Below are positions 21,343-46,221 of a DNA stretch of 64,000 nucleotides, in pieces. The position numbers and the translations under genes are program-made. The DNA lies in NCBI GenBank assembly GCA_964550085.1, contig CAZJXR010000001.1:13027-77026 (forward strand), read 5' to 3'. The stretch comes from an uncultured Gemmatimonadota bacterium. GTDB taxonomy: Bacteria > Gemmatimonadota > Gemmatimonadetes > Palauibacterales > Palauibacteraceae. The stretch's first letter is position 1, and each line of letters starts with the position of its first letter. The notes under the pieces are model-generated. The model searched no databases. It was not told the DNA's origin and saw only the letters and a list, made by a program, of their open reading frames with translations.

Positions 21343-21894
21343 ATGCGTGCAGCACGAGAGGTTTCGGATGCGGATGTGGTGGATGAAGTGCTGGGAGGCC
21401 GTGCGGAAGCGTACACGACGCTCGTGCGCCGGTACCAGGGTTTTCTGTTCCGTCACGCGGAGCGGATGACCGGCAGCAGCGACGAAGCCGCCGACATCGT
21501 TCAGATGGCCTTCGTCAAGGGGTTTCGTAATCTCGAGCGGTGTCGCAACCCCGAGCGGGTCGGAGCGTGGCTGTTCCGGATCTCCGCCAACCTGTGCAAG
21601 GATTACCTGAAGAATCGCCGCCGGCTGAACCTGTCATTGCAGGATACGCCCGCCGTCACCACGCGTCGCGACAACCCCGGGGACGTCGCCGAACGCTCCG
21701 AGATGGGCAGCAAGATCGAGGTGGCGCTCCAAAAGCTGGCCGTGGATCAGCGCGAGGCGTTCGTGCTCAAACATGTGGAGGGGCGCTCCTACAAGGAGAT
21801 GTCCGATCTGCTGGAAGCCTCCGTGCCGGCCCTCAAGATGCGGGTTCACCGGGCCCGCGAAGAGCTGCAGACTCTTCTCTCCGTCTATCGCTAG
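21343..21894 (+). CDS. ECF-subfamily RNA polymerase sigma-70 factor
   Basis: Region 2 (YQGFLFRHAERMTGSSDEAADIVQMAFVKGF) and region 4 (FVLKHVEGRSYKEMSDLLEASVPALKMRVHRAREEL). Confidence 0.85.
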   Translation: MRAAREVSDADVVDEVLGGRAEAYTTLVRRYQGFLFRHAERMTGSSDEAADIVQMAFVKGFRNLERCRNPERVGAWLFRISANLCKDYLKNRRRLNLSLQDTPAVTTRRDNPGDVAERSEMGSKIEVALQKLAVDQREAFVLKHVEGRSYKEMSDLLEASVPALKMRVHRAREELQTLLSVYR

Positions 21895-21928
21895 TCACAG
21901 GCACCGCCCGTAGGCAGGGCGAACGGGG

Positions 21929-23110
21929 ATGTCGCCGGCCGGACATTCCATCCCGGTAACCCTTCCGACGAGGTTGGTGAGCCGCGCCTTCCTCGCGTTC
22001 GCCGTGCCGCTCTTCGCGTTTCCCGTACCGGTGCGGGCGCAGGCGAGCGGGAGCCCGGCGCTGATCCTCGACGCGGGCATCGCCCACTCCCTCCCGCCCG
22101 GCGAGGCGATCCTCGACGAGTCGGTGTCGTACGGACTGCTTGGAGTGCGGGTCGACGTTCCCGTCAGTCGCGCCCTGTTGCTGTTCGGCTCCGCCTACGG
22201 GGGTCTCACCACCGAGGCGCACGAGGGGAACTGGGCCTCGGGCACCGTCGGAATGGGTCTGGTCCATCCCGTGGGGACGACGGTCGATCTGGGTCTGGCG
22301 GGCTGGGGCAGCGGGTTCACGGTCGGCGGTCAGTTCCCGTACCGCGGCGTCACCGCCCGGCTGTCGCCGGAGCTCCGCCTGTTCTCCGGTAGCTGGTCGG
22401 CGGCGGCTCGCCTGACGGGAGCGATCGGCCGCACACACACGACCTTCCGGCGGCTCGATCGCGCGCTCACCTTCGCGAACGACGTGTGGAGCTGGGGGGC
22501 AAGTGTGGAGGTCGGCCGCACGGCGGGAGCCGCAGGCGCGTCGATGGCGTTCGACGCCTTCGACAGTTCGAGCGGGGCGTACTATGCGGGATCCGCGCGC
22601 GCGCGCCTGGCAACGGGTCCGGTGACCACGCGCCTGGAGCTGGACGTGTGGCAAACGCCGACGGGGTTCGAACCGGCAGGGAGGGTCGCCCTGTCGGTCG
22701 CGCTCGGACGGACAGTCGAGACCGAGCTGTACGGAGGGCGCTCGCCGCCCGATCCACTGCTGGCGACCCGGCCGGCGGCGGACTTTGGCGCCATCCTCAG
22801 CTGGCAGTTGCTCGGCTTCCCGAGCGTCGCTCCCGAGGCGCCGCCGCGCCCGGACAGCGTGATGGTCGCGGTTCAGCTCCGATACGAAGGCGCCGAGAAG
22901 GTGTACGTGGTGGGTGATTTCACCCTCTGGATCCCGGAGCCGATGCAGCTTCACGCCGGCGAGTGGGAGGTGCAGCTTTCGGTGGAGCCGGGAGTGTACG
23001 AATACGGGTTCATCGTGGATGGCGACTGGTACGTGCCCCTCGATGCGGGAGGACTCTCCACCGATGACTGGGGGCAGTTGACGGCCACACTCGTCGTTCC
23101 GCCTCCGTGA
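21929..23110 (+). CDS. Secreted protein with beta-strand-rich N-terminal domain and C-terminal glycogen-binding (CBM48/AMPK-beta-like) domain
   Basis: Signal AFAVPLFAFPVPVRAQA. C-terminus KVYVVGDFTLWIPEPMQL...GEWEVQLSVEPGVYEYGFIVDGDWY matches the AMPK1_CBM/CBM48 signature. Confidence 0.6.
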   Translation: MSPAGHSIPVTLPTRLVSRAFLAFAVPLFAFPVPVRAQASGSPALILDAGIAHSLPPGEAILDESVSYGLLGVRVDVPVSRALLLFGSAYGGLTTEAHEGNWASGTVGMGLVHPVGTTVDLGLAGWGSGFTVGGQFPYRGVTARLSPELRLFSGSWSAAARLTGAIGRTHTTFRRLDRALTFANDVWSWGASVEVGRTAGAAGASMAFDAFDSSSGAYYAGSARARLATGPVTTRLELDVWQTPTGFEPAGRVALSVALGRTVETELYGGRSPPDPLLATRPAADFGAILSWQLLGFPSVAPEAPPRPDSVMVAVQLRYEGAEKVYVVGDFTLWIPEPMQLHAGEWEVQLSVEPGVYEYGFIVDGDWYVPLDAGGLSTDDWGQLTATLVVPPP

Positions 23111-29818: not shown

Positions 29819-30559
29819 TCAAAAGTAGTACCACAGGGTGAGGCTGAGCTCGAAGTTGTTGATCCAATCCGAGCTCTCCGCCGTCGGCGCCCCTTCCTCG
29901 GCGATCTTGAGCAGGATGTCAGGCCGGAAGAAGCCCTCCGGGGCCTGGATGCGATACAGGTGATCCCGGATCTCGGCCGCCAGGCCGACCTTCTGACCGA
30001 ACAGCCGCTCGATTCCGAGGCCGAGGTCGAACACCGGCTGGGTTCCGAGCTCGAAGCGGAACGGACCGGATGGAATCGCCAGCTCCGGACTCCGCTCCTC
30101 GTTCACCCCGAAGATGACGCCACCGCCGAGCACCAGATAGGGCTGAATGGCGTGCCACGTCCGCGCTCCGGTGAACGAGAACTGCACGCCCCCCTGCAGA
30201 ATGATCCAGTTGAGGCCGACCGTGTCGATCGGTGTCGGATACGTGTCCACTCGGGGATCGATCACGTACAGGTCCGGACTCAACCCGTAGCCGGTGTTGA
30301 TCTCGAGCGACAGGGGACTGCTCACGCGCACCCGAAGTCGGGCGCCGATATCCGGCGTCGGTCCGGGACCCATGTCGAGCATGCCACGGTTGGCGAACAG
30401 GTACCCGCCGTAGACGCCGACGCGAAACCCGGGCTCGATCCACCGGTACGGCGTGTCGATCGCGTCGCCGCCCTCGAGCTCGAAGTCCTGGGCACGCAGA
30501 TCCGGCACGAACATCAGGAACAGGACGGCGCAGCAGGATGTCAGGCGCTGGATTCGCAA
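29819..30559 (-). CDS. Outer-membrane beta-barrel (porin-like) protein
   Basis: Alternating amphipathic beta-strands, C-terminal ...LTLWYYF ending in Phe (OMP signature). TTG start at 30559 with GAGG RBS gives signal MRIQRLTSCCAVLFLMFVPDLRAQ. Track ORF extends to 30799. Confidence 0.5.
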   Translation of the reverse strand: MRIQRLTSCCAVLFLMFVPDLRAQDFELEGGDAIDTPYRWIEPGFRVGVYGGYLFANRGMLDMGPGPTPDIGARLRVRVSSPLSLEINTGYGLSPDLYVIDPRVDTYPTPIDTVGLNWIILQGGVQFSFTGARTWHAIQPYLVLGGGVIFGVNEERSPELAIPSGPFRFELGTQPVFDLGLGIERLFGQKVGLAAEIRDHLYRIQAPEGFFRPDILLKIAEEGAPTAESSDWINNFELSLTLWYYF

Positions 30560-30741
30560 GTCGGTGCCTCGGTTCTCTTTGTCCGGGGGCTCGTGCTCCC
30601 ACACTGGTGGGCTGCAGCGCGTCGATACCACCCCACGGCGGGCGACGAGTTCTGATTGACATGGTTTCCGCCCGGTCTCTATACTCGACCGGGCCGATGG
30701 GTACGACCTTGCGACGACGACGGCGGCCTGCCAGGCGCCGC

Positions 30742-31866
30742 ATGAACCTCTGTCGATCGGCGACGGAATGTAGACGGGCAGATCGGGCATTTCCAGCATT
30801 CCGGAGCCGGTTTCGACCGTACTCCATCCCAGCCGTCGTGGCCCTGGCCGTGCTCACCGCCGTCCCGGCCGCCCGCGGTCAGACCGTGGTGGTGGCCATT
30901 CCGCAGGAGAACATTCGTCAGCCGCCGCAGGGCGCAACCCCCGGGAAGCTGCTCGGGACCGTGTACGAGGGCACCCCGCTGGCGGTGGTCGGGCGTCGAG
31001 CGCAGTGGCGCCAGGTGACGCTCGAAGGCTGGATCTGGTCGGAGTCGGTTCGCACCACGGCGCGCGACGGCTTCGACCTGGTCGTCGCCAAGCGGGGCGG
31101 CGAGAATCTGCGGGCGCTGCCCAACGGACCGGTTCTCGGCCGTCTCCTGCAGGGCTTTCTCCTCGAGCGGATCGGCCAGCAGGGCGGGTGGACCCGCGTG
31201 CGGCGAACGGCGTGGATTTGGGGTCCGTCACTCGGCGCGCCGCCGCCCGAGTCGGCGCCCGAGACGCAGACGCCGACCGCCGAGCCGCAGGTCGCCGCCG
31301 AGGTGGATCCCGGTGCGCCGGTGTCCGACCGATCCACGGCCGCCGATCGGTCGTCGACATCCTCCGATCGCCTCGCGGTTCCGGAGGGGGGAGCGTACCT
31401 GCTCGTGTCGCCCGACGGGGATACGCTCGGTCACCTCGAACCCGGGGCGGATCTGCGCGTCCTCGCCCGACAGGGAACATGGGCGCGGGTGCGACTCGAC
31501 GCGTGGGTATGGACGCCGAGCTTCCTGACCGAAGAGGAACAGGCGAGCACCCAGCATCTCGGCGCCAGCGACCTGCGGGCGAATCCCGAGGCTTACAACG
31601 GACGTACCGTCCAGTGGGAGGTGCAGTTCGTGTCCATGGAGCAGGCCGACGCGGTGAGGACGGACTTCTACGAGGGTGAACATTTCATCCTCGCCCGTGC
31701 CCCGGACGCGTCGGATGGCTTCGTGTACCTGGCGGTGCCCCCGGAACTGGTCCCGGTGGCCGCGGAATTCCGGCCGTTGCAGACGATCCGGGTGCTGGCG
31801 CGCGTGCGCACCGGCGCTTCGTCGCAGATGGGCGCCCCGATCCTCGACCTTCTCGCCGCTGAATAG
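30742..31866 (+). CDS. Secreted protein with three SH3b-like repeats (GxW.RV...WIW)
   Basis: Repeats RAQWRQVTLEGWIWSE, QQGGWTRVRRTAWIWGP and RQGTWARVRLDAWVWTP. Hydrophobic signal-like segment SIPAVVALAVLTAVPAARGQ after a long basic N-region. ATG at 30742. Confidence 0.45.
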   Translation: MNLCRSATECRRADRAFPAFRSRFRPYSIPAVVALAVLTAVPAARGQTVVVAIPQENIRQPPQGATPGKLLGTVYEGTPLAVVGRRAQWRQVTLEGWIWSESVRTTARDGFDLVVAKRGGENLRALPNGPVLGRLLQGFLLERIGQQGGWTRVRRTAWIWGPSLGAPPPESAPETQTPTAEPQVAAEVDPGAPVSDRSTAADRSSTSSDRLAVPEGGAYLLVSPDGDTLGHLEPGADLRVLARQGTWARVRLDAWVWTPSFLTEEEQASTQHLGASDLRANPEAYNGRTVQWEVQFVSMEQADAVRTDFYEGEHFILARAPDASDGFVYLAVPPELVPVAAEFRPLQTIRVLARVRTGASSQMGAPILDLLAAE

Positions 31867-31881
31867 AACGGAGCCGAACCG

Positions 31882-33795
31882 ATGGGTATCGCCGCCTCGC
31901 TCAGCATTCTCGCCGCCCTGCAGGCGAGTCCCGCTCCCAGTCAGGTGACGGTGCAGCCGGCGACGGCGCTGGTGCCCGTCGACTCCTCGCTGCGACTGGA
32001 GGCGGCGGCCTACGATGCCGACGGCGAGCGCCTGCAATTCGACCGACAACCTCGCTGGTTCACCCCGGACGATGAGATCGTCTCGGTCGATGCGAACGGC
32101 GTGGTGACCGCCCGGAGGCCCGGCGAGGCCAAGGTGGTGGCGCTCCTGCGCGGCAAGTCTGGGCAGGCCGTGATCACCGTGCCCCAGCTCCCTCCGGACG
32201 CGCTGGCCCTCGCCCTCGAGGTCGAGGCCATCCCGGCGAACACGACCGCGTTGCTTGCGGTGACGGCGCGGACTCGTCTCGGTGATGAGGTGGAAACGAC
32301 CGGGGTTCGGCTCGAGAGCGCAGACGGTGCGATCGCCGAGGTGGACGAGAGCGGCCGCGTGTGGGCGGGAAAGGTGGGAACCACCACCATCCGGGCCACG
32401 CTCGGCGAAGCGAGCGCCGAGATCGCGGTGCGGGTAATCGACAATCCGGCCACCACCTACGAGCTGCAGCCACGCGCGGCCGTCGTGCAGACGGGAGACG
32501 TCGTGCGGTTCCAGGTGATGGGCCGCTCCCGCTCCGGTCAGGAGCTGCATGGCTATCGACCGCTCTGGTCGGTGAGCGGGGCCGGTTCCCAGATCGAGCC
32601 GGAGGGCGAGCAAGGAGTGTTCGTGGCCGAGGAGCCCGGCACCTACCGCGTCACCGCTCGGGTGGGGGCGAATCAGACGTTGAGCTCGACGGTCGAGGTC
32701 GAGCCGCGGCGCGCCCGCGGTCAGCTGTCCAAGGTGGGGCGCGGGCCGATTCGCACCCATCACTCCGCCGACATGTGGGTGTTCGAGGGCGTCGATGGTC
32801 GCGACTACGCCTACGTCGGCACCTTCGGTCATGACTGGATGATGGCCTTCGACGTGACGGATCCGACGCGACCCGTGGTCACCGACTCCGTGCAGGTCGA
32901 TGCGCGCCGCATCAACGACGTGAAGATCCACCCCGCCAACCGGCTGGCGATCATCACCCGGGAGGGAGCGTCGGACCGACACAACGGAATCGTCCTGCTC
33001 GACCTCGCCGAACCGGCTCACCCGGTCATTCTCTCCGAATACACGGAGACGGTTACCGGCGGGGTGCACAACGTCTGGATCCGCGGCGATCAGGAGCTCG
33101 TCTACCTGGCACACAACGGGACATCGGAGATGCACATCGTGGACATTTCCGACCCATCGCAGCCCCACGAAGTCGGCCGCTGGGGACTCGACAAGGAGGG
33201 CAAGACTCTGCACGACGTCATCGTTCAGGATGGATACGCGTATCTGTCCTACTGGAACGATGGGCTGATCATGCTCGACGTGGGCGCCGGGTCGCACGGG
33301 GGAACGCCGACCGAGCCACAGCTCGTCAGTCAGTTCAAGTATCCGGTGGGTCACACCCACACGGCTTGGCGGCATGGTCGCTATCTGTTCGTCGGAGACG
33401 AGATCTTTCCCCCCGACTGGGACGCGGACAGGCCGATCGAAGCGGCCGGCTACGTTCACGTCATCGACTACTCGGATATCGAGCGCCCACGAGAGGTGGC
33501 GCGCTATGAGGTGCCGGAGGCCGGCGCCCACAACTTCTGGGTGGAGGATGACCTGCTGTATGTGGGTTACTATCAGGGTGGTCTCCGGGTCGTGGACGTG
33601 TCCGGGGAGTTGCGTGGAGACCTGTACCGGCAGGGTCGGGAGCTGGCGGTGTTGAAGACCACCGACGCGGATGCGGTGGTGCCGAACTGGCCGATGGCGT
33701 TCGGTGCTCAACCTTTCAAGGGCAACCTCTTCCTCTCCGATTTCAACTCCGGGCTCTGGATCGCGCGCTTCCAGGGCGAGCCGCTGGTTCCGTGA
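31882..33795 (+). CDS. Surface protein with N-terminal Big_2 Ig-like domains and C-terminal LVIVD-repeat beta-propeller
   Basis: Big_2-like segments (IVSVDANGVVTARRPGEAKVVA) and five LVIVD repeats (GIVLLDLAEP, MHIVDISDP, GLIMLDVG, YVHVIDYSD, GLRVVDVSG). Confidence 0.65.
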   Translation: MGIAASLSILAALQASPAPSQVTVQPATALVPVDSSLRLEAAAYDADGERLQFDRQPRWFTPDDEIVSVDANGVVTARRPGEAKVVALLRGKSGQAVITVPQLPPDALALALEVEAIPANTTALLAVTARTRLGDEVETTGVRLESADGAIAEVDESGRVWAGKVGTTTIRATLGEASAEIAVRVIDNPATTYELQPRAAVVQTGDVVRFQVMGRSRSGQELHGYRPLWSVSGAGSQIEPEGEQGVFVAEEPGTYRVTARVGANQTLSSTVEVEPRRARGQLSKVGRGPIRTHHSADMWVFEGVDGRDYAYVGTFGHDWMMAFDVTDPTRPVVTDSVQVDARRINDVKIHPANRLAIITREGASDRHNGIVLLDLAEPAHPVILSEYTETVTGGVHNVWIRGDQELVYLAHNGTSEMHIVDISDPSQPHEVGRWGLDKEGKTLHDVIVQDGYAYLSYWNDGLIMLDVGAGSHGGTPTEPQLVSQFKYPVGHTHTAWRHGRYLFVGDEIFPPDWDADRPIEAAGYVHVIDYSDIERPREVARYEVPEAGAHNFWVEDDLLYVGYYQGGLRVVDVSGELRGDLYRQGRELAVLKTTDADAVVPNWPMAFGAQPFKGNLFLSDFNSGLWIARFQGEPLVP

Positions 33796-33949
33796 CCCGC
33801 CCCCCCACCCACCCGTCCTTCATACCGGACCGCAAAGTCCGCGGAGTCAGCAGGTCGCGTTTGGCGATCTGCTAGGGATTCCCGCACCGGGCCGCTATGT
33901 TAGCCCCATCCGGTGGGGGTTGATCGTGCACTCCGCCCGGAGACGCCGA

Positions 33950-35350
33950 ATGGACAGACGCAGCGGTCATAGAAGTTGGCCCCGCGATTTCGCCGTGGTG
34001 GGAGGGTCCGGGAGCGACGGATCCGTGATCCATCTGAAGCGCAGAATGCCCGTTTCGCGCGCGATTCGATGGAGCCCCCGTCAGGCAGAATCCCGCGGTC
34101 CCGCCGATGCGGGCGCAGCGACGGCATACGAGCTGTTCGTAACCCAACGTGCCCTGAGACAGCTCCGCGATCAGCAGCGCGCGGGCAGCCGCAGTGGTGC
34201 ATTCGGCTTTCTTTACGGAGAACTGTTCGAATGCACGAAGTCCGCCCTGCGTTACTCGGTGGTCGACGCGACGGTGGCCGCATCGTCCCGCTTCGATGAG
34301 TCGCGTCAGGAAGCGGTGCTGGACCGCGAGTGGCCCACGGTGCAGAAGTGGAGCGAGAAGCTCGGGCTGGCTGTGGCCGGCTGGTACCACACGCATCCGC
34401 ATCTTGGAGTCGTCTTGTCCGAGGCGGATGCCGGGACGCACGTCCAATGGTTCAGGGAGCCGTGGCAGACGGCGCTCGTGTTCGCACGGCGCGGTCGAGA
34501 CTGGGACGCGGGTTTCTTCCGTTACACGACCCGAGGCGGCCTGTCGCGCGTGCATCCGGCGGCCTTCTTCGAGCTGCTGGATCGGCTTCCCGAGGCGGGG
34601 AGCGCCAAGGTGACGTATGTGGACTGGGAAGGTTACATCACCGATGAATCGGTCGTTCCCCCGGCCGAGGATGTCGTCGAATCGGTGGTGGAAGCCGAAG
34701 CGGTGATCGAAAGTGCCGAATCGGTGATGGAAGAAGAGCGAATCGACCCGCCGCCCGAGGAGCAGGAGGCGTTCGAGGAGCGCGACATCGATCGCGACGA
34801 AGTGGCCGCGTCGGAGGCCGAAGAGCGGTTGCGGGACGTGCTCGGCGAGTTCGCCCACGATCGCGACAGCGAGATCACGCTGGTGCTGGCCAAGAAGGAC
34901 GGCGCCTCTCCCTTCGATCTGGACGCGATCCTCAGACGGGTCCGGTGGCCATGGATTCTCGGGCTGGCGGTCGTCCTGTTGGCCGGCTGGCTGATGGTGA
35001 ACGCCCTGCGCCGGCCTCCGGAGCCGCGTCCGCTGCCGCCGAGCCCGGCCCCCACCCGACCCGTGTCGCCGGCGGTGGCGGAGTTCGACGGCGCCGCGCG
35101 CGACCTGTCACGGGCGATCGCGGGGTACGCCGAGCGCAGGAACGATTTCGACCTGGGTCGCATCGACTGTTCCGGGCTCGCGGCCGGCTACCGGATCGCG
35201 GACGAGGCGCTGGTGACCGTCTCGCAGCGCTTCGTGGCCGCCCGGGCCGAGCTCGGGGCCCGACAGGCCGAGATGTACGATGAACTCGTGTCTCGGATGG
35301 ACACCGTCAACCAGCACTTCGACTCAACGGGATGCGCCCGCCCAGAATGA
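33950..35350 (+). CDS. Membrane-anchored JAMM/MPN+ (Mov34) family metalloprotease with C-terminal extracytoplasmic domain
   Basis: Complete JAMM motif: E in FLYGELFE, then WYHTHPHLGVVLSEAD (HxHx7Sx2D). Acidic linker, single TM WILGLAVVLLAGWLMVNAL, then a Pro-rich ~110-aa C-terminal domain with two Cys. ATG at 33950 has a GGAGA RBS; ATG 34046 is an alternative. Confidence 0.6.
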   Translation: MDRRSGHRSWPRDFAVVGGSGSDGSVIHLKRRMPVSRAIRWSPRQAESRGPADAGAATAYELFVTQRALRQLRDQQRAGSRSGAFGFLYGELFECTKSALRYSVVDATVAASSRFDESRQEAVLDREWPTVQKWSEKLGLAVAGWYHTHPHLGVVLSEADAGTHVQWFREPWQTALVFARRGRDWDAGFFRYTTRGGLSRVHPAAFFELLDRLPEAGSAKVTYVDWEGYITDESVVPPAEDVVESVVEAEAVIESAESVMEEERIDPPPEEQEAFEERDIDRDEVAASEAEERLRDVLGEFAHDRDSEITLVLAKKDGASPFDLDAILRRVRWPWILGLAVVLLAGWLMVNALRRPPEPRPLPPSPAPTRPVSPAVAEFDGAARDLSRAIAGYAERRNDFDLGRIDCSGLAAGYRIADEALVTVSQRFVAARAELGARQAEMYDELVSRMDTVNQHFDSTGCARPE

Positions 35351-37758
35351 GCCGTAGTCTCCCGCGTTCCTTTTCGGTCGCGACCGCGGCCGTGGTGGCG
35401 GCGACCATCTGCGTCGCGCCCTCCTCGTTATCGGCCCAGCAGGCGAGCCCGCTGCAAAAGAGCGACGTGGTGCGGCTGCTGACCGGCAGCACCTACACGA
35501 AGGGAGAGATCGCCTCGATCATCGCCGGGAGCTGCCTCACCTTCTCGCCCACATCCAAAGACCTGGTGGACTTCCGGACTCTGGGCGCCGACGACGGCAT
35601 CATCGAGGCGATCGAGACGTGCGACACCGCGGCGTCGGTTGAGATCACGCCCTCGCGCACCAGCCTGGCGGCCTCCGTTCGCAGCAGCGTGCGAATCGAC
35701 GTGCGGGTCACGCGCAACTCCCGCCCGGTGAGCGAGTTCGCGCTCGCGCTCCGCGGCAGCGGACGCATTCCCGGTGGTGCCGCCGGTGATCTGAGTGCCA
35801 CGACCGACGCCGATGGGCGTGCGAGTTTCACCGTGCCGACCGGGACGGCGGTCGCAGCCTACCGTCTCGCGATCGCGCCGGCGGCCGGGGATCCTGCGGC
35901 GGCGCGTACGGTTTCGCTCTCCGTCACCGCCGCCAGAGCCGCCTCCGTCTCGCTGCAGCCGGGGCGCCTCGCTCTGGCCGCCGGAGCGTCCAGCGCCACG
36001 GTGACCGCGAAGGTGACGGATGAGTTTGGTAACCCGGTCACCGGTGCCTCGGTCGGCTTGCGCGCGGCGCGGTCGGGCTCCGACGCTCTCGTCGCCGCCG
36101 GCACTACCGACGGGGCGGGCGAAGTGCGGCTGCGGGTAGACGCGACGCGGGTCGGCGGCAGCCGCGAGCTGGAGGTGGTCGTCGATGCGATCGTTCTCGG
36201 CGCTCTCGCCGTTACGGTGACCGCGCCGTCGCCCGAGAACTCGGCCTTCGTCGCCGGCACCGAGCAGCGGGCCGAACGCGGGGCGGTCCTGCCGGAACGT
36301 CTGGTGTTCGAGCTCCGGGACGCGAACGGCGATCCGGTGTCCGGAGCCGCAGTCGCGTTTACGGTCACCAACGGCGAGGTCGACGTCGCGCGCGGGGTGA
36401 CGGACGAACGGGGTCGCATCAGCGTCGCGGTGACGATCGGCAGCGAGGACGGACCGACGGTGGTCACAGCGGCGGTCGGCTCGCTGGACAAGCGAGTCGT
36501 CTTCGAGCCGTTGCCGGAGCCGGTCGCTCCGGACACGGCTCAGGCACGGCAGCTGGCCGGAGCGGCCGATCTTCTCGCCAGCGGCCAGTACGCCGCGGCG
36601 TACGAGGCGTACGAGGCAATCCTGGCCGACGATCCGTCCCAGATCGACGCATTGGTGGGTTCCGGCCAGAGCCTCGCCGCGCAGGGTCGCGAAGCGGAAG
36701 CAGCCACCCGGTTCCGGGAAGCGCTCCGCCTCTCTCCTTCGCGCCGTGACGCCCAGCGGGGTCTGGCGTTCGCCTTGCTCGAGTCCGGGAACCCGGGTGG
36801 TGCTCTCACCTGGTTCGAAATCACGGTCCGCCAGACGCCGAACGACGTGGCGCTGTGGGTCGGGCTGGCCCGGTCGCGCGCCGCGGTCGGACAGGCGATG
36901 GGCGCAAAGACTGCCTACGAGCGCGCCCTCCAACTCGATCCGGGCAACCGGGCGGCGGAACGGGGTCTCGCCGCGCTGGATCTTCCGCGACTCCCGCTCC
37001 TGGAGCTCGCCTTTCTCGGCGGCTACACGACGGAGAACGGACGGAGCGTCGGTCCCCGCATGGCGCAGGCCGTGGTGTGGCCCGTGCCGTCGTTCCGGCT
37101 CTGGTTCCGGTTCGACAACTTCCTGAGCATCGACAACCCCGCGTTCGTGCGCGGCGGGGACGATGTAGAGGGCTTCTACGGCGGAGCCGGCCTCGAGTGG
37201 GGTGAAGCGAGCCGTTACGCGACCAGCCTCGAGGTCGGTCGCCGCAACTGGCCCCCCGAGCCTACCACGACGCAGACTACCTGGCAGCTCGAGCAGAGCG
37301 CGAAGTTCCGGGGTGGTCGGGGCAACGTTATCGCCACGGTCGGGGGGTACTTCGGGCACTTCTTCGACCAGGACGACTGGATGGCGTGGGCGAAGGTGGG
37401 GGTGCCGGCCAGCCGCTCGCTCCTCATCGAGCCACAGATCTATTACGGAAACACGGCCAGTACCAACATCCGGGAGACCGGACGGGCTCAGGAGAAGGAA
37501 GGTCGCTTCGTGCTGTGGGCGAAATACGGATCCGCCGGCGGTTTGCAGGTGGAGCCAGGGTTCGGCGTCGGGAGCGTGAGCAGCGACCTCAGCGACGAGT
37601 TCTCCGGCACCCTGGTGGAGGGGCTGCTGCTCGCCAGGGCCCCGGTGGCGCGCGCCGGCCACCTCGAGCTCTTCTTCCGTTACCAATCGGTGCCGGGGAC
37701 CGACCCGTTCGCTACCGTGGCGCTGGGCTTCGACCTGACCCTTCCGCGATCCAATTGA
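35347..37758 (+). CDS. Large secreted protein: signal peptide, Big_1-like Ig domains, TPR repeats, C-terminal putative beta-barrel
   Basis: Signal RSFSVATAAVVAATICVAPSSLSAQQ. Ig-like repeats (SVSLQPGRLALAAGASSATVTAKVTDEFGNPVTGASVGL). TPR region (AAYEAYEAILADDPSQ..., GAKTAYERALQLDPGN). Last ~270 aa show alternating aromatic/hydrophobic beta-strand periodicity. ATGA overlap with the JAMM gene. Confidence 0.55.
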   Translation: MSRSLPRSFSVATAAVVAATICVAPSSLSAQQASPLQKSDVVRLLTGSTYTKGEIASIIAGSCLTFSPTSKDLVDFRTLGADDGIIEAIETCDTAASVEITPSRTSLAASVRSSVRIDVRVTRNSRPVSEFALALRGSGRIPGGAAGDLSATTDADGRASFTVPTGTAVAAYRLAIAPAAGDPAAARTVSLSVTAARAASVSLQPGRLALAAGASSATVTAKVTDEFGNPVTGASVGLRAARSGSDALVAAGTTDGAGEVRLRVDATRVGGSRELEVVVDAIVLGALAVTVTAPSPENSAFVAGTEQRAERGAVLPERLVFELRDANGDPVSGAAVAFTVTNGEVDVARGVTDERGRISVAVTIGSEDGPTVVTAAVGSLDKRVVFEPLPEPVAPDTAQARQLAGAADLLASGQYAAAYEAYEAILADDPSQIDALVGSGQSLAAQGREAEAATRFREALRLSPSRRDAQRGLAFALLESGNPGGALTWFEITVRQTPNDVALWVGLARSRAAVGQAMGAKTAYERALQLDPGNRAAERGLAALDLPRLPLLELAFLGGYTTENGRSVGPRMAQAVVWPVPSFRLWFRFDNFLSIDNPAFVRGGDDVEGFYGGAGLEWGEASRYATSLEVGRRNWPPEPTTTQTTWQLEQSAKFRGGRGNVIATVGGYFGHFFDQDDWMAWAKVGVPASRSLLIEPQIYYGNTASTNIRETGRAQEKEGRFVLWAKYGSAGGLQVEPGFGVGSVSSDLSDEFSGTLVEGLLLARAPVARAGHLELFFRYQSVPGTDPFATVALGFDLTLPRSN

Positions 37759-37799
37759 GCGGGCGCTCGAGCGGCAGGCCAGGGAGGTCACCTACCATC

Positions 37800-38117
37800 G
37801 TGGACAAGCCGTGGGGACGGGAGATCTGGTACGCGCACACGGATCGGTACGCCGGCAAGGTGCTGGAGGTCACGGCCGGTCACCTTCTTTCACTCCAGAA
37901 GCATCGCGTCAAGCACGAGACTCTGTTTCTGCACAGCGGAAGGATGCGCTTCACCCTCGGCGACGAGATGTTCGAGTGGGTGCCGGGGTCGGCGATCGAG
38001 GTCCCTCCTGACACGGTTCATCGCATGGAAGCGCTCGAAGACAGTGTGATCCTGGAGGTCAGTACGCCGGAGCTCGACGACGTCGTCCGGCTCGAGGACC
38101 GCTACGGCCGGCGGTAG
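37800..38117 (+). CDS. Cupin-domain protein
   Basis: VDKPWGREIWYAH..., HxH/E (LQKHRVKHETLFLHSG) and second motif (PPDTVHRMEA) fit the cupin two-motif pattern. GTG start after a GGGAGG RBS. Confidence 0.55.
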   Translation: MDKPWGREIWYAHTDRYAGKVLEVTAGHLLSLQKHRVKHETLFLHSGRMRFTLGDEMFEWVPGSAIEVPPDTVHRMEALEDSVILEVSTPELDDVVRLEDRYGRR

Positions 38118-38122
38118 GAGCG

Positions 38123-38647
38123 ATGACGGGGATGGTGGATCTGGTCGAAGGGCTCGGGCACCGGGAATACCCCCAGAGCTGGCTACTGATCGATGTGCTC
38201 GAGCGGCAGCCCCGGCTTCTGTCGCGAGAGGTTGTCGACCTGTCGCCCGGAGCGATCGAGCTCCGGCATGCCGCCAACGAACTTCGCCTATTCGCCGAGG
38301 CGCGAGAACGCTGGATCACGACTCGCGACGAAAGCAGCCTCGATGACCTCGACTCGCGGTACCGGCGCGACCTCTCGTTCGGACCGCGCATGATCTACTG
38401 CGTCGAGCACGATGCCTCTCGACTCATTCACGGCGGGAAGCCGTTTCGGCATCTGAGCGTGTGGCAGGGCGGCTCGATCCTCACGCCGGCCACTTCGGCC
38501 GAAATCGGCCTCTACTTCTACGGCAGACGGCCTGCTGCCTTCGGCTTCGTGGCCCCGGGTCGGGTCCACGGCTACATCGGAATGGAGTGGGAAGCGCTCG
38601 ATACGGAGGACATCCGTCGGTTGCTGAGTCGCGAGATGCGGAAATGA
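38123..38647 (+). CDS. Hypothetical protein
   Basis: 174 aa, no recognised motif. 5 nt downstream of the cupin gene. Confidence 0.4.
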   Translation: MTGMVDLVEGLGHREYPQSWLLIDVLERQPRLLSREVVDLSPGAIELRHAANELRLFAEARERWITTRDESSLDDLDSRYRRDLSFGPRMIYCVEHDASRLIHGGKPFRHLSVWQGGSILTPATSAEIGLYFYGRRPAAFGFVAPGRVHGYIGMEWEALDTEDIRRLLSREMRK

Positions 38648-41120: not shown

Positions 41121-41376
41121 GGCGTCAATGCTAGTCGGCCGCATCGGTCCGCGCCAACCCGACCTCGTGCGCTTGATCCGCCCCTGTAGGACCGGCTCGC
41201 CGGGTCGTCGCACGGCGATCCGCGGCGTCGAGGGGGACAGGTCGGCGTGCCGGTACCATCGACATTGCCGACATGGCTGAAGTCCTCTATCCTGCATGCC
41301 TTCCACGGGGCCGAGGCGCCGGCTCCCAGCAGCGGAACGTCATCCGTCGAGGCCCGGCGAGCCGGATGTGCAACCG

Positions 41377-44300
41377 ATGGAACTCACAGCCAAGGCGAAG
41401 AGACATCTCGATGAGCTGATCGAGAGGCTCGACCACGGGGCCCTCGACGCCCCGGTCGAAGCGATCGGTCTCTTCACACGCAAACTGCTGGCCCGTGCCA
41501 GCACGGAGTTCTTCGAGGCACGCGACGCGCAGACGATCGCGTCCGATGTGCAGGCCCTGTTCGAGTTCGTCGCCGCCACCCCTCCCAGCTCGATAGCAGC
41601 GCGAGTCCGTTTCATTCCGGATCGACCGCACCGTGCGATCGTCGAGACCGTTATGCCGGACTGCCCGTTCATCGTCGACACGCTGCGGGAGTACTTGCAT
41701 TCGATCGGGTTCGGGGTGATTCACCTTCTGCACCCCGTGTTCGTCATCGATCGCGACAGGAAAGGCGGCATTCTCCAGATCCGGGATCGTCGCGCCGAGG
41801 GTCCGAAGACGTCGGTCGTCTATATCGTGATCGACGGTCACGTCGATCACGAGCAGGTCACCCACCTCGAGACGGAGATCCGGGAGCGCCTGCGCCAGGT
41901 CCAGATCGTGACCGCCGATTTCCACGCCATGCTCGAAAAGGCGAACGAGATCGTCGCTGATCTGGAGGTGGAGAAGAAGCGCTTTCCGTGGAGGGCGGCC
42001 GAGTTCGAGGAGATTGCCGATCTCCTGCGTTGGCTGGAGGATGGCTGCTTCGTGTTTCTCGGCTACCGGGCATACAACCTGTTCACCGATCACGCCGGAG
42101 CCCGGGTGATCCAGGTCGAGCCCGGCTCGGGCCTCGGAGTCCTGCGCGACGAGTCGACCTCCAAGTACTTCGAGCCGCAGCCGCTCGACGAGCTGGACGC
42201 CAACCTGCGTGCCCGCATCCTCGGCGGACCGATGCTGATCACCTCCAAGTCGAACGCGGAATCTCCCGTGCACCGGCGGGCACGGATGGACGACATCAGC
42301 ATCAAGAAGCTGGGTCCGAACGGTGAGGTCGAGGGAGAGCGACGGTTCCTCGGCCTGTTCACGGCCAAGGCCGTGTCTCAGGACGCATCCAAGATCCCCA
42401 TTCTGCGCCGCAAGCTGCGCGAGATCCTCGAAGCGGAGGGAGCCTCCGAAGGGTCGCACGACTACGGGCTCATCATTCGCGTCTTCAACAGCATGCCGAA
42501 AGAGGAGGTCTTCTTCGCCACCGTGCCGGAGCTGCTCGGCGAGATCCGGGTGGTCATGGAGACCGAGGGCGTGGACGAGGTTCGGGTGACGGTCCGCCCC
42601 GATCCGCTCGGTCGTGGCGTGTTCGTCATGGTGATCCTGCCAAAGATCCGCTTCTCGGGCGAAGTCAGGCTGAAGATCGAGGAGGCGCTCACGGAGGCGT
42701 ACGAAGGGACGATCCTCGCCGACCATCTGGCGCTGATCAGCGAGGGAGAACAGGCCCGCTTGCACTACTACCTGTCGTCCCAGCTCAAGGACGTGACGTC
42801 GGCCGATGTGTCCGAGCTCGAGGAGCACATCCGGCGAACGGCCCGCAGCTGGGAAGACCGGTTGTCCGAATCGCTCGAGCGCGAGCTCGACGCGGAACGG
42901 GCGCACGAACTGGTCGACCGCCACAAGGGCGACTTTTCCGCCCAGTACCAGGCCACTGTCGATGTCGACTCGGCGGTTCGTGACCTGGTCAATCTCGAGG
43001 CGCTGGAGACGACCGGTATGCAGCAGGTGGTGCTCGAGGAGCTCGACCAGCCTCGGCCGCACGCCGCGCTGCTCAAGATGTACGCTCCGCGGGGCCTGTT
43101 CGTCCTCAGCGACGTGATGCCCACGCTCGAGAACGCGGGCTTTCGGGTCATCGAAGCCGATGCGCTCGAGATCGGACAGACCGGGAGGCCCGGTGCCAGC
43201 ACCATCCACCGTTTCCAGGTGGAGACGCCCGCCGCCTGGAACGTGGACCGGAGGACGGTCGAGGCGCGGGTAGCCGCTGAGCTGACGGCCGTCCAGACGG
43301 GCAGGGCCGACGACGATCCTCTGAATTCTCTCGTCCTCTCGGCCGGGCTCGACTGGGAGCAGGTGGCCGTCCTGCGCGCGTACGCCGGCTACGCCTTCCA
43401 GATCGTCGCCGTAACCAGCCGCAGCGGATCGCGTCGGCCCCTCACCCAGCATCCGGCAACGGCCCGGCTCCTGTACGAGGTGTTCGAGGCGAAGTTCGAT
43501 CCCGCGATCGACGAGTCGGAACGGCGGTCGCTGCTCCGCAAGCGGGTCGGTGAGTACCGCGACTCGCTGGAGGGCGTGCACAGCATCGATGACGATCGCA
43601 CCTGTCGGCGGCTTCTCGCTCTCGTGCGAGCCACGGTGCGCACGAACTTTTTCCAGCGCCGCATGCGGGAGCGTGGAGAGCTGACCGTGGCGCTCAAGTT
43701 CGACTGCTCGCGCCTCGATTTTCTGCCGCGCCCGCGGCCGAAGTTCGAGGTGTACGTGCACAGCTCTCGAACGGAGGGGGCTCATCTGCGCATGGACTCG
43801 ATCGCCCGGGGAGGGATCCGCTGGAGTGATCGGATCGATGAGTTCCGAGTCGAGGTCCTCGGACTGGTCAAGACCCAGCAGGTCAAGAACGCTGTCATCG
43901 TGCCGGCCGGCGCGAAGGGCGCGTTCATCGTGCGCCGCCCGCCCATCGATCGCGACGCGCGGGCCGAGGTGGGACTCAGCAGCTACCGCGAGTTCATTCG
44001 CTCGCTGCTCGACGTGACCGACAACGTGAGCGGCGCCGGCGTCGAGCACCCGCCCGACTCGGTGGTCTGGGACGGCGAGGACCCCTACCTCGTGGTGGCG
44101 GCAGATAAAGGCACGGCGCAGAACTCGGATACGGCCAACGAGCTGGCAAAGGAATACGGGTTCTGGCTCGGCGACGCGTTCGCCTCCGGTGGCTCGCACG
44201 GATACGACCACAAGGCGCTCGGCATCACCGCGCGTGGCGCCTGGGAGTCCGTCACCCGTCACTTCGCCGAGCTGGGGACGGACATTCAGGAAGAGGAATT

Positions 44301-46221
44301 CACCGTCGTCGGGATCGGCGACATGAGTGGCGACGTGTTCGGCAACGGAATGCTGTTGAGTCGGACGATTCGTCTGGTCGCCGCCTTCGATCACCGCCAC
44401 GTGTTCATCGACCCGTCGCCGGATCCCGTCATCAGCTACACGGAACGCCAGCGGCTGTTTTCGCTCCCGCGGTCGAGTTGGGCGGACTACGATCCGAGCC
44501 TGATCAGCGAGGGTGGTGGGGTGTACGAGCGCGGGGCCAAGTCGATCAGCCTCACACCCGAGGCGCGTCAGCTCCTCCGCATCAACGACGAGAACGTGAA
44601 CGGGGAGACGTTGATTCGCGCCATCCTGTGCGCGCCGGTCGACCTGCTGTGGAACGGCGGCATCGGGACCTACGTGCGGGCCAGCACCGAGACCAACGCC
44701 GATGTGGGAGACCCCGGCAACGACGCCGTCCGGGTGGTCGCCACCGACCTGTCGGTCAAGGTGATCGGCGAGGGCGGAAACCTCGGCCTCACCCAGCGGG
44801 CGCGGGTCGAGTACGCCCTCAACGGGGGCCGCCTGAACACGGACGCGCTCGACAACGCTGCCGGCGTCGACATGTCGGACCACGAGGTGAACCTCAAGAT
44901 CTTCGTCGACAGCGCCGTGCAGGCGGGCTCACTCGACGAGGCCGCGCGCAACCACCTGTTGCGCGAGGTGACCGACGATGTGGCAGCGGCAGTGCTGCGT
45001 GACACCTACCTGCAGAGCCTGGCGGTGAGTCTGGATCAACAACGGGCGATCAAGCATGCGACCGAGTTCCGGGACAGTCTCACCACACTGGAGAGGTTGG
45101 GCCAGCTGGATCGCAAGCTCGAGGATCTGCCTACATCCGAGGAGTTGAACGAGCGCCAGGAGGCAGGTTTGGCGCTCACCCGTCCCGAGTTAGCCGTGAT
45201 GCTCGCCTACTCGAAGATGCATCTCAAGCGCGGGATCGCGGATTCGGAGCTCCCGGATGACCCGGCCCTGTTCGCACTCCTGCGCTCCTATTTCCCGGAC
45301 CGGGTGGTCGAAACGGTCGGAGTGGAGCACCTCGGCGGTCACCGACTGCGTCGCCGGATCGTCAGCGCGATGCTGACCAACCTCATGGTGGATCGCATCG
45401 GTGCCACTGGACACCTGCGGGTGGCCCGCGAAAGTGGCCTGCCTGCCGAACAGGTGGCCGGTGCTTGGTATGCGGCTTACAGACTGGGCGACGCGGGGTC
45501 GGTGTACGAGCGCCTGGAGGCCCAGGGCGGCGCCGTCACCGCCGGGCTCCAGCTCCAGTGGTTGTTGAGCGTGGGCGGAACCCTCGAGCGGGCGACCCGC
45601 TGGATTCTGTCCAATGTGGAGGAGGGGTACAGGGTCGAGCGCACCCTGGAGCGCCTTCAGGAACCGATCCGCGAGCTGCGGCGCGAGTTCGGAGGCCTGC
45701 TGACGGAGAAGAGCCGGGCGGAGCTCGAAAACCGGATGGCCCTGCACGAGATGGATGGCCTGGACGCGGAGCTGGCCGCCGATCTCGCCACCTTCGAGTA
45801 CCTCGACGCGCTGCTGCCGGTCGCGCAGCTGGCGACGGAAACGGACATCCCCGCTACCCTCGCCGGCGAGGTCTACTTCGGGCTCACGGATGAGATCGAC
45901 TTTCCGTGGCTCCAGGAGCAGCTGACCCTCGTCCCCCAGGCAGACCACTGGCAGCGTCGGGCGGTGCAGGTGCTGAGCCTGGAGCTGGAGAACGCACGGG
46001 CGCGCATGGCCGGCAGCATCTTGCGGCACATCGGGTCGGCGGAGGAGGTCGAGGGCGCGCGGGCTGACTTCCGGGAGCGTTTCTCGCGAGACTTGAGTCG
46101 AATCCGGCAGGTGCTGGACGAGGTGCGCCAGGCCGACTACGTGTCGCTCGCCTCGTTGATGGTGGCGGTGTCGGCGATCCGGGCCCAGTCGCGGGTGCTG
46201 GCGGAGCGGACCGTTACCTAG
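41377..46221 (+). CDS. gdhB: NAD-specific glutamate dehydrogenase, large (~180 kDa) form
   Basis: ~1614 aa. Catalytic-core motifs (VPAGAKGAFIV, DKGTAQNSDTANELA, GGSHGYDHKALGITARG) match the Bac_GDH family. The long antisense ORF 41287..44883 is a known artefact of this gene family. Confidence 0.85.
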   Translation: MELTAKAKRHLDELIERLDHGALDAPVEAIGLFTRKLLARASTEFFEARDAQTIASDVQALFEFVAATPPSSIAARVRFIPDRPHRAIVETVMPDCPFIVDTLREYLHSIGFGVIHLLHPVFVIDRDRKGGILQIRDRRAEGPKTSVVYIVIDGHVDHEQVTHLETEIRERLRQVQIVTADFHAMLEKANEIVADLEVEKKRFPWRAAEFEEIADLLRWLEDGCFVFLGYRAYNLFTDHAGARVIQVEPGSGLGVLRDESTSKYFEPQPLDELDANLRARILGGPMLITSKSNAESPVHRRARMDDISIKKLGPNGEVEGERRFLGLFTAKAVSQDASKIPILRRKLREILEAEGASEGSHDYGLIIRVFNSMPKEEVFFATVPELLGEIRVVMETEGVDEVRVTVRPDPLGRGVFVMVILPKIRFSGEVRLKIEEALTEAYEGTILADHLALISEGEQARLHYYLSSQLKDVTSADVSELEEHIRRTARSWEDRLSESLERELDAERAHELVDRHKGDFSAQYQATVDVDSAVRDLVNLEALETTGMQQVVLEELDQPRPHAALLKMYAPRGLFVLSDVMPTLENAGFRVIEADALEIGQTGRPGASTIHRFQVETPAAWNVDRRTVEARVAAELTAVQTGRADDDPLNSLVLSAGLDWEQVAVLRAYAGYAFQIVAVTSRSGSRRPLTQHPATARLLYEVFEAKFDPAIDESERRSLLRKRVGEYRDSLEGVHSIDDDRTCRRLLALVRATVRTNFFQRRMRERGELTVALKFDCSRLDFLPRPRPKFEVYVHSSRTEGAHLRMDSIARGGIRWSDRIDEFRVEVLGLVKTQQVKNAVIVPAGAKGAFIVRRPPIDRDARAEVGLSSYREFIRSLLDVTDNVSGAGVEHPPDSVVWDGEDPYLVVAADKGTAQNSDTANELAKEYGFWLGDAFASGGSHGYDHKALGITARGAWESVTRHFAELGTDIQEEEFTVVGIGDMSGDVFGNGMLLSRTIRLVAAFDHRHVFIDPSPDPVISYTERQRLFSLPRSSWADYDPSLISEGGGVYERGAKSISLTPEARQLLRINDENVNGETLIRAILCAPVDLLWNGGIGTYVRASTETNADVGDPGNDAVRVVATDLSVKVIGEGGNLGLTQRARVEYALNGGRLNTDALDNAAGVDMSDHEVNLKIFVDSAVQAGSLDEAARNHLLREVTDDVAAAVLRDTYLQSLAVSLDQQRAIKHATEFRDSLTTLERLGQLDRKLEDLPTSEELNERQEAGLALTRPELAVMLAYSKMHLKRGIADSELPDDPALFALLRSYFPDRVVETVGVEHLGGHRLRRRIVSAMLTNLMVDRIGATGHLRVARESGLPAEQVAGAWYAAYRLGDAGSVYERLEAQGGAVTAGLQLQWLLSVGGTLERATRWILSNVEEGYRVERTLERLQEPIRELRREFGGLLTEKSRAELENRMALHEMDGLDAELAADLATFEYLDALLPVAQLATETDIPATLAGEVYFGLTDEIDFPWLQEQLTLVPQADHWQRRAVQVLSLELENARARMAGSILRHIGSAEEVEGARADFRERFSRDLSRIRQVLDEVRQADYVSLASLMVAVSAIRAQSRVLAERTVT

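Follow-up and report, generated by a model that had tools for sequence, protein, structure and literature searches.

A transmembrane JAMM protein and a secreted Ig-domain partner: a candidate envelope-spanning two-protein module in Gemmatimonadota

Two adjacent plus-strand genes in a 64,000-nucleotide (nt) stretch of DNA from an uncultured Gemmatimonadota bacterium (the window; GC about 68%) encode a membrane-anchored JAMM protein, which we call J, and a secreted protein with immunoglobulin (Ig)-like domains, which we call B. J and B are best explained as a two-protein module specific to Gemmatimonadota, and a trans-envelope signalling or processing device, as suggested by the original prediction made from this DNA, would be the best reading of the pair. 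The known JAMM/MPN+ enzymes are soluble subunits of large complexes, such as the proteasome lid, COP9 and BRISC, or they occur with E1, E2 and ubiquitin-like protein (Ubl) partners in archaeal and bacterial operons and in phage-defence systems. A word-index search with J retrieved just four homologues, and the family became visible by exhaustive profile search: a profile built from four J proteins and run against 1.84 billion representatives gave 253 clusters at E≤1e-30 and 1392 at E≤1e-10. A scan of genomes, one per species, found 101 J relatives, nearly all of them in Gemmatimonadota, and genes were called and clustered in 81 loci. The Gemmatimonadota loci examined number about 80 and are up to 20 kb long. 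The relatives of the window are almost all metagenome-assembled Gemmatimonadota.

J has the organization of a bitopic inner-membrane protein, and its open reading frame (ORF) is identical to the NCBI gene call (P0001). The parts of J, with the confidence (pLDDT, predicted local distance difference test) of an AlphaFold2 model, are as follows.

33950-35350, + strand: gene J, 466 amino acids (aa); JAMM domain, linker, transmembrane (TM) helix and predicted periplasmic three-helix bundle
34031-34669, + strand: JAMM/MPN+ domain (aa 28-240), predicted cytoplasmic
34229-34231 and 34388-34429, + strand: catalytic residues, E94 and H147xH149x7S157xxD160, respectively
34670-34948, + strand: acidic, Pro-rich, disordered linker (aa 241-333), predicted cytoplasmic; pLDDT below 50-60
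34949-35005, + strand: single TM helix (aa 334-352); hydrophobic segment WPWILGLAVVLLAGWLMVN, a helix in the model
35069-35347, + strand: J-C domain, predicted periplasmic three-helix bundle (aa 374-466) with a terminal GCxRP motif; pLDDT 93-98 in the bundle at aa 374-460

The catalytic motif of J is complete (E94...H147-T-H149-x7-S157-x2-D160). The sequence match to the family is borderline; the Pfam JAB model is narrowly above its cut-off (22.8 bits, cut-off 22.5), Prok-JAB is below it (23 bits, cut-off 25), and a phmmer search of the PDB gave marginal similarity to MPN+ deubiquitinases (E about 2e-3). The AlphaFold2 model, built on an alignment of 41 homologues, has a mean pLDDT of 80, with values above 90 for residues 28-240, and among the structural neighbours of the model the MPN fold is closest to the deubiquitinases CSN5, Rpn11, BRCC36, archaeal JAMM1 and BilC. 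Taken together, the predicted fold and the motif identify the N-terminal domain of J as a deubiquitinase-type MPN+ domain that is, by prediction, catalytically complete. A RadC-type remnant was rejected as an identity for J, because no RadC family was found among the Pfam and NCBIfam results at E≤0.01 and because the structural neighbours are deubiquitinases.

The JAMM domain probably faces the cytoplasm and the bundle the periplasm, because J has no N-terminal signal peptide and paired Cys residues are found only beyond the TM helix. Just after this helix is a Pro-rich stretch (aa 353-373). In the J-C domain, all 41 sequences have C407 and C462, and both Cys residues of the N-terminal domain of B (B-N, described below) are likewise invariant; such invariant pairs fit disulfides outside the cytoplasm. 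J-C alone matched no family in a Pfam scan at E up to 10. The linker is hypervariable in length and sequence among homologues. The bundle was detected in 119 of the 148 best J representatives, the remainder being mostly fragments, and in 55 of the 58 complete J copies of the loci, and therefore the architecture of J is conserved. The original prediction had described a complete JAMM site, not of RadC type, fused through an acidic linker and one TM helix to a Pro-rich, Cys-containing extracytoplasmic part; sequence and model bear this out, and the extension turns out to be a feature of the family rather than an oddity of the window.

The stop codon of J and the start codon of B share the sequence ATGA, as had been noticed originally. 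The frames thus overlap, and from this arrangement B appears to be translationally coupled to J. B consists of the following parts.

35347-37758, + strand: gene B, 803 aa from the ATG at 35347; NCBI gene call P0154
35347-35436, + strand: putative signal peptide (aa 1-30), ...SSLSA/QQ, read from the sequence
35437-35631, + strand: B-N domain, helical, 65 aa; LQKSDVVRLLTG..YTK.EIA.II..SCL.F.PT..D..DF..LGA...I.AI..C
35635-36510, + strand: three Ig-like domains of Big_1/invasin type (aa 97-388), beta-sandwich modules in the AlphaFold2 model
36529-36981, + strand: TPR domain (aa 395-545); nine helices, pLDDT above 90
36997-37755, + strand: C-terminal predicted beta-barrel (aa 551-803), modelled like 12-stranded outer-membrane barrels

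An alternative upstream ATG at 35332 would give a B protein of 808 aa. Pfam matches on B are Big_1 (5e-19), Invasin_D3 (7e-11) and several TPR families. The consensus of the B-N profile is EPLRKTDLIRLLTGSTLSKAEIAALVRRNCLSFTPTERDRADLVALGADSAVLRAIDAC, and B-N alone matched no Pfam family at E up to 10. In the AlphaFold2 model of B (mean pLDDT 71), residues 551-799 form 12-14 long antiparallel hairpin strands with pLDDT of 60-88, in which hydrophobic and polar residues alternate, and the best structural matches are the 12-stranded KdgM, NanC and EstA and the COG4313 channel. This supports a predicted barrel of the small 12-stranded type, although residues 545-803 matched no Pfam family, autotransporter or other barrel, at E up to 10. 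An exhaustive protein search with the barrel region alone (36979-37758) missed even the parent protein and thus carries no information. The claim that this region is a barrel is therefore retained at the level of the model; the further likening to the PgaA, BcsC and Slam exporters is not, since the barrel resembles KdgM, NanC and autotransporters, the exporter family scores are far below their cut-offs (see below) and no DUF560-family barrel of the Slam type was found in residues 545-803.

The link between J and B extends beyond the window. Among the 58 complete J copies followed by at least 1.5 kb of sequence, the next gene is B in 33 cases, another J in eight and something else in 17, and the two frames usually overlap where J and B are adjacent. 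In the window's lineage all four of four genomes have J beside B; the genes upstream of B in L083 (425 aa) and L084 (397 aa) are J homologues with the full motif and the GCxRP terminus. Gene-neighbourhood conservation, which had been named as a way to check the prediction, is thus seen for J and the Ig protein downstream of it. Per locus, the 52 loci with enough downstream sequence have the gene orders JB (22), J (20), JBJB (4), JJB (3) and JJ (3). Within the gene calls of the 81 loci, the B-N profile finds 40 proteins in 36 loci, and all of them belong to cluster 8, that is, to B.

What J is coupled to in general is B-N with Ig repeats, the only parts common to B proteins at large. B proteins of Gemmatimonadales are 307-530 aa long and have the N-domain and Ig repeats only. 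Only in the window's lineage do B proteins also have the TPR domain and barrel (the window, L001, L083, L084 and P0155-P0157, the last three being full-length B homologues with 39-47% identity). The originally described Ig-TPR-barrel partner is therefore correct as the anatomy of the protein in the window and too narrow as a description of what accompanies J. A partial B-like protein with Big_1 and TPR (P0158) is not beside a JAMM gene, and therefore such TPR/Ig proteins also occur independently. In Gemmatimonadales, J is located in a fixed housekeeping block. Upstream are genes for pyruvate kinase, a metallo-beta-lactamase-fold protein, an aldolase, YtxH, BrkB/YihY and a beta-eliminating lyase; downstream of J, with or without B, are dnaX, ybaB, recR and MglB-/MglA-like genes, on to grpE and dnaJ, all of these downstream genes being named from sequence alone, without a family-library scan. 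These neighbours offer no clue to the function of J.

Gene fusions suggest how J and B might be connected. P0088 (729 aa; L088:349-2538) runs from a JAMM domain through a Pro-rich linker and a TM helix directly into Big_1, and has neither J-C nor B-N, which is expected if J-C and B-N have no other task than to connect J with the Ig arm. This fusion suggests that J-C and B-N may dock on each other. Two further proteins, P0122 (1113 aa) and P0136 (924 aa), have the order JAMM-JAMM-TM with a long region beyond the TM helix, and in P0122 this region reads as Ig-like repeats. Thus, a cytoplasmic JAMM domain, a TM helix and an extracytoplasmic Ig arm appear to be a recurring arrangement, in which the arm is either fused or, presumably, docked through J-C and B-N. 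The recurrence of an Ig arm fused to a JAMM-TM protein is the main, though indirect, support for a physical complex of J and B, and we regard it as rather probable that the two proteins bind each other through J-C and B-N.

The fusion and the family survey also bear on the idea that B is an autotransporter-like surface adhesin, with the Ig and TPR domains as passenger and the 12-stranded barrel as translocator, and that J either is unrelated to B and just lies next to it or is dedicated to holding the N-terminus of B in the periplasm while B is exported. This idea has in its favour the Big_1 domains, which are typical of adhesins such as invasin and intimin. Since no autotransporter or other barrel family was matched, since most B proteins have no barrel and yet the link to J persists, and since the overlapping frames and the P0088 fusion argue against a chance neighbour, we consider an adhesin highly improbable.

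The catalytic columns E-H-H-(S/T/A)-D are kept in 74 of the 88 J copies surveyed, and the window has a single J copy with the full motif. In tandem J genes, the second copy is often degenerate: the five columns read VRCSD in L021, MRSGD in L052, RRSSD in L073, RHRSD in L051 and QHHRD in L033. In these five loci the tandem genes lie at about 10-13.5 kb of the locus, and the second has lost the catalytic Glu and/or His. Eukaryotic MPN proteins form the pairs Rpn11-Rpn8, CSN5-CSN6 and BRCC36-Abraxas. By analogy, the putatively active and inactive J pairs mirror these MPN+/MPN- heterodimers, which are also the closest lookalikes of the J model.

The same survey weighs on a purely structural role, in which J and B would be a passive tether that ties the inner membrane to either the periplasm or the outer membrane, like TolA or OmpA, and the JAMM domain mainly a cytoplasmic binding module. 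Much in the proteins would suit a tether: the Ig rod, TPR domain and barrel of B, the Pro-rich spacers of J, the coupled synthesis of the two, the position of J within a housekeeping block across the order, and the occurrence of degenerate MPN- copies. Against this, most copies, that of the window among them, retain the catalytic residues, which argues for enzymatic selection, and most B proteins have no outer-membrane anchor. A mere tether is thus quite unlikely in our view.

Outside Gemmatimonadota, JAMM proteins matched by the J profile at around 1e-50 are found in a different company. L082, from Anaerolineae, is the sole non-Gemmatimonadota locus of the genome scan, and it encodes (L082:5848-12589) a ThiF-like E1, a UQ_con-like E2, a YukD-like Ubl, a soluble JAMM protein, a multi-TM FHA protein and a VWA protein. 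In L087:5415-13808, ThiF, a YukD-like Ubl and an E2-like protein are encoded together with P0122, and VWA and FHA genes come next; on the short contig L089 (634-6011) the P0136 gene, too, has VWA and FHA genes after it. The L087 operon adjoins genes for a Tad-pilus-type ATPase and platform protein. No description of this E1/YukD/E2/JAMM/VWA/FHA operon type was found in the literature searched. On the basis of these profile scores and gene contexts, the catalytic domain of J appears to belong with the JAMM proteins of membrane-associated Ubl systems, and in Gemmatimonadota it occurs without these partners within about 10 kb. When the E1, E2, YukD, VWA and FHA proteins of L082 and L087 were run by tblastn against the window and the roughly 80 Gemmatimonadota loci, none was matched. 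Pfam and NCBIfam scans over 21.4-41.1 kb of the window revealed no E1, E2 or Ubl gene, and none is located within about 12 kb on either side of J and B, in agreement with the original remark that no such gene is nearby.

J might nevertheless be a membrane-anchored processing or deconjugating peptidase of a Ubl pathway whose E1, E2 and Ubl genes are elsewhere in the genome, with the periplasmic parts and B merely localizing it. The fold of J, nearest to true deubiquitinases, is in keeping with such a role, and so are the operons just described, one of which contains a JAMM-JAMM-TM-Ig protein. On the other hand, the searches for E1, E2, YukD, VWA and FHA genes around J were negative, across the order the block of housekeeping genes stays the same and has none of them, and the conserved pair of J-C and B-N is left unexplained. 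We therefore judge this pathway role unlikely.

A different gene set was found directly beside J and B in 10 loci, namely a receiver-domain protein, a TM-HEAT protein and a PgaC/IcaA-like GT2 glycosyltransferase. This trio is downstream in nine loci (L028:13164-16260 and its equivalents in L004, L006, L009, L011, L020, L027, L038 and L049) and upstream in L002:7297-9974, and the nine loci look like one subclade, to which L002 is added. The GT2 protein matches NCBIfam TIGR03937 at 9e-35, which is below the equivalog cut-off. Together with the TPR-barrel of the window's B, the trio keeps an exopolysaccharide role possible, in which B would export the polymer as PgaA and BcsC do and J would regulate or process the machinery of a synthase-dependent system. 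In this respect the order of a TPR domain and then a barrel in B is suggestive. Several observations point the other way. GT2 and HEAT homologues have no tblastn match in the 64-kb window, and of the roughly 80 loci no more than 10 have the trio. The B proteins beside the GT2 synthase have no TPR domain and no barrel, and the barrel of the window's B resembles 12-stranded barrels rather than larger exporter barrels. The PgaA model (TIGR03939) scored 27.2 bits with a cut-off of 366.65 and the BcsC model (NF008520) 33.1 bits with a cut-off of 858, both in the TPR region of B only. An exopolysaccharide exporter is accordingly very unlikely.

We propose instead that J and B form a receptor-like, envelope-spanning sensor-protease. 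The bundle of J would dock onto the B-N domain, so that B would serve as the extracytoplasmic arm of J and, in the window's lineage, also as an outer-membrane anchor. The JAMM domain would be governed by the state of the arm, probably by way of MPN-domain pairing of the Rpn11-Rpn8, CSN5-CSN6 and BRCC36-Abraxas kind, and once activated it would cut a peptide or isopeptide bond of a substrate in the cytoplasm. The whole would work like BlaR1/MecR1, but with a JAMM catalytic domain. As a whole this proposal is tentative, a serious possibility that still falls short of being probable. The wider claim is doubtful, and somewhat unlikely to be right in every part: that J and its relatives are a new class of receptor-like transmembrane JAMM enzymes, widespread in Gemmatimonadota, with an Ig arm fused or docked through J-C and B-N and anchored in the outer membrane in the window's lineage, which switch cytoplasmic cleavage by MPN+/MPN- pairing and descend from the membrane-associated E1-E2-Ubl systems of other phyla.

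Several points weigh against the sensor-protease. B is missing beside J in 23 of the 52 loci with enough downstream sequence; therefore, J can work without an adjacent B, and J is the core component. The conserved housekeeping neighbours of J in Gemmatimonadales include no regulator, and no substrate or cytoplasmic partner of J came to light. The topology of J is deduced from features of its sequence. The P0088 fusion is known from a single 3-kb contig. The B-N domain is modelled as four helices at a low pLDDT of 42-66, the model of B is built on an alignment of only four sequences, and the last strand of B has no terminal aromatic residue of the kind seen in another outer-membrane protein of the window.

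J and B are part of a run of plus-strand genes at 30.8-38.6 kb (SH3_3, Big_2/LVIVD, J, B, cupin and a 174-aa ORF). The genes on either side of the pair are as follows.

30838-31866, + strand: secreted SH3_3 protein (Pfam)
31882-33795, + strand: Big_2/LVIVD beta-propeller protein (Pfam)
37800-38117 (probable), + strand: cupin, MannoseP_isomer/Cupin_2, mannose-6-phosphate-isomerase type (Pfam)
38123-38647, + strand: orphan 174-aa ORF, 5 nt after the cupin gene

The two upstream genes are possibly co-transcribed with J and B, judging from gene order. The order SH3-(LVIVD)-J-B is kept in L001 and L083, and SH3 and LVIVD are found upstream only in the window's lineage. A sigma-70-like promoter match (30656-30685, + strand; TTGACA, 18 nt, TATACT; 11 of 12 positions) is upstream of the SH3 gene and could drive the whole plus-strand run from SH3 to the orphan. 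No terminator-like site was found inside this run (30838-38647); one was found just past its end, on the minus strand. MoaD is a Ubl. A tie to the molybdenum-cofactor genes further upstream (MoeA, MobA and FdhD) was rejected, because they are encoded on the other strand, neither MoaD nor ThiS is present, and this context is absent in other lineages.

Downstream of B, the cupin gene likely starts at GTG 37800, with GGGAGG 11 nt upstream and a gap of 41 nt after B. The 174-aa ORF has no Pfam or NCBIfam match, and a sequence search of the PDB gave nothing meaningful. The spacing of 5-41 nt on which the original prediction had placed both genes in the operon is correct, and their membership is not upheld. 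The cupin and orphan were rejected as members of the J-B module because imuA-imuB-dnaE2 separates them from B in L001 (6750-11986) and L083 (6874-12210); in L084 (4407-6522) imuA-imuB is found right after B. The proximity of B and the cupin gene in the window is due to the absence of this cassette there. The cupin and the small ORF stay paired in L001, with overlapping frames, which suggests that they are a small two-gene unit. The imuA-imuB-dnaE2 mutagenesis cassette, whose place corresponds to 37758-37800 of the window, is itself an insertion or deletion polymorphism.

Other genes of the window were noted in passing. Divergent from the SH3 gene, a 261-aa protein (29819-30604, - strand) has features of an outer-membrane barrel, ends in ...LWYYF and has no Pfam match; L083 has a 252-aa gene at the matching position, and the 261-aa protein has no similarity to an outer-membrane protein encoded beside J in another lineage. 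At 21376-23110 a gene for an extracytoplasmic function (ECF)-type sigma factor is followed by a gene for a 378-aa product whose C-terminal domain is AMPK1_CBM (glycogen-binding type); possibly the two proteins are a sigma factor and its anti-sigma factor, with a sensor domain of an unusual kind. An ORF of about 1620-1640 aa occupies 41296-46221 (+ strand), and its L083 counterpart (1611 aa) has Pfam domains of NAD-specific glutamate dehydrogenase.

If the sensor-protease proposal is right, bacterial transmembrane signalling would gain a new catalytic module, a route built on the deubiquitinase fold. It would also give a function to several hundred unannotated proteins of a poorly studied and abundant soil phylum, and provide a bacterial setting in which to study MPN pairing as a control of activity. 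The tie to the membrane-associated E1/YukD-Ubl/E2/VWA/FHA operons points to an unexplored bacterial ubiquitin-like family.

The original prediction recognized no system that matches this pair, and we likewise found the J-B architecture undescribed in Pfam, NCBIfam, PADLOC, the source annotation and the literature searched. Neither J nor the cupin or the orphan matched a defence system in PADLOC. Literature on membrane-anchored or TM-linked JAMM/JAB proteins, on JAMM proteins in Gemmatimonadota and on YukD/JAB/vWA/FHA operons did not contain the architecture of J, and TM-linked JAB proteins are not mentioned in Iyer et al. 2006 (PMC1779556) or in PMC11601603.

For B, the closest known likenesses are found among outer-membrane proteins. 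As in PgaA, BcsC and AlgK-AlgE, the B protein of the window has a TPR domain and then a C-terminal predicted outer-membrane barrel; it differs from them in its extra Ig repeats and N-domain, in its 12-stranded type of barrel and in that there is no synthase in the window. The C-terminal porin of PgaA and BcsC has about 16-18 strands. Unlike KdgM and NanC porins and type Va autotransporters, B has no sequence-family match in its barrel, and the barrel, in a model from four sequences, is fused behind Ig and TPR domains. Big_1 domains are shared with intimin and invasin, but the barrel of B is C-terminal and not N-terminal, and the intimin model scored 16 bits with a cut-off of 1400.

J, in turn, differs from the eukaryotic and archaeal MPN+ deubiquitinases (Rpn11, CSN5, BRCC36, AMSH, the Caldiarchaeum Rpn11 homologue and Pyrococcus JAMM1) in having a C-terminal TM anchor and a predicted periplasmic domain. 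Compared with the JAMM proteins of bacterial Ubl operons (BilC, CBASS Cap3 and those of L082, L087 and L089), it has no E1, E2, Ubl, VWA or FHA gene nearby, and it has the J-C bundle in place of fused Ig repeats. The J operon contains no E1-like, E2-like or beta-grasp Ubl gene, and in this it differs from the Bil, Bub, CBASS E1/E2-Cap3 and ThiS/MoaD-JAB operons. In BlaR1/MecR1 an extracytoplasmic sensing part is linked across the membrane to a cytoplasmic zinc peptidase. The likeness of J to these proteins is a functional analogy only, that of a sensing arm connected through the membrane to a zinc peptidase; BlaR1 and MecR1 have an M56 gluzincin fold instead of a JAMM fold, several membrane spans and a repressor as a known substrate. 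In summary, the catalytic domain of J is of an already known kind, and what is new here is its membrane wiring, the pair of J-C and B-N, and its phylum-wide spread.

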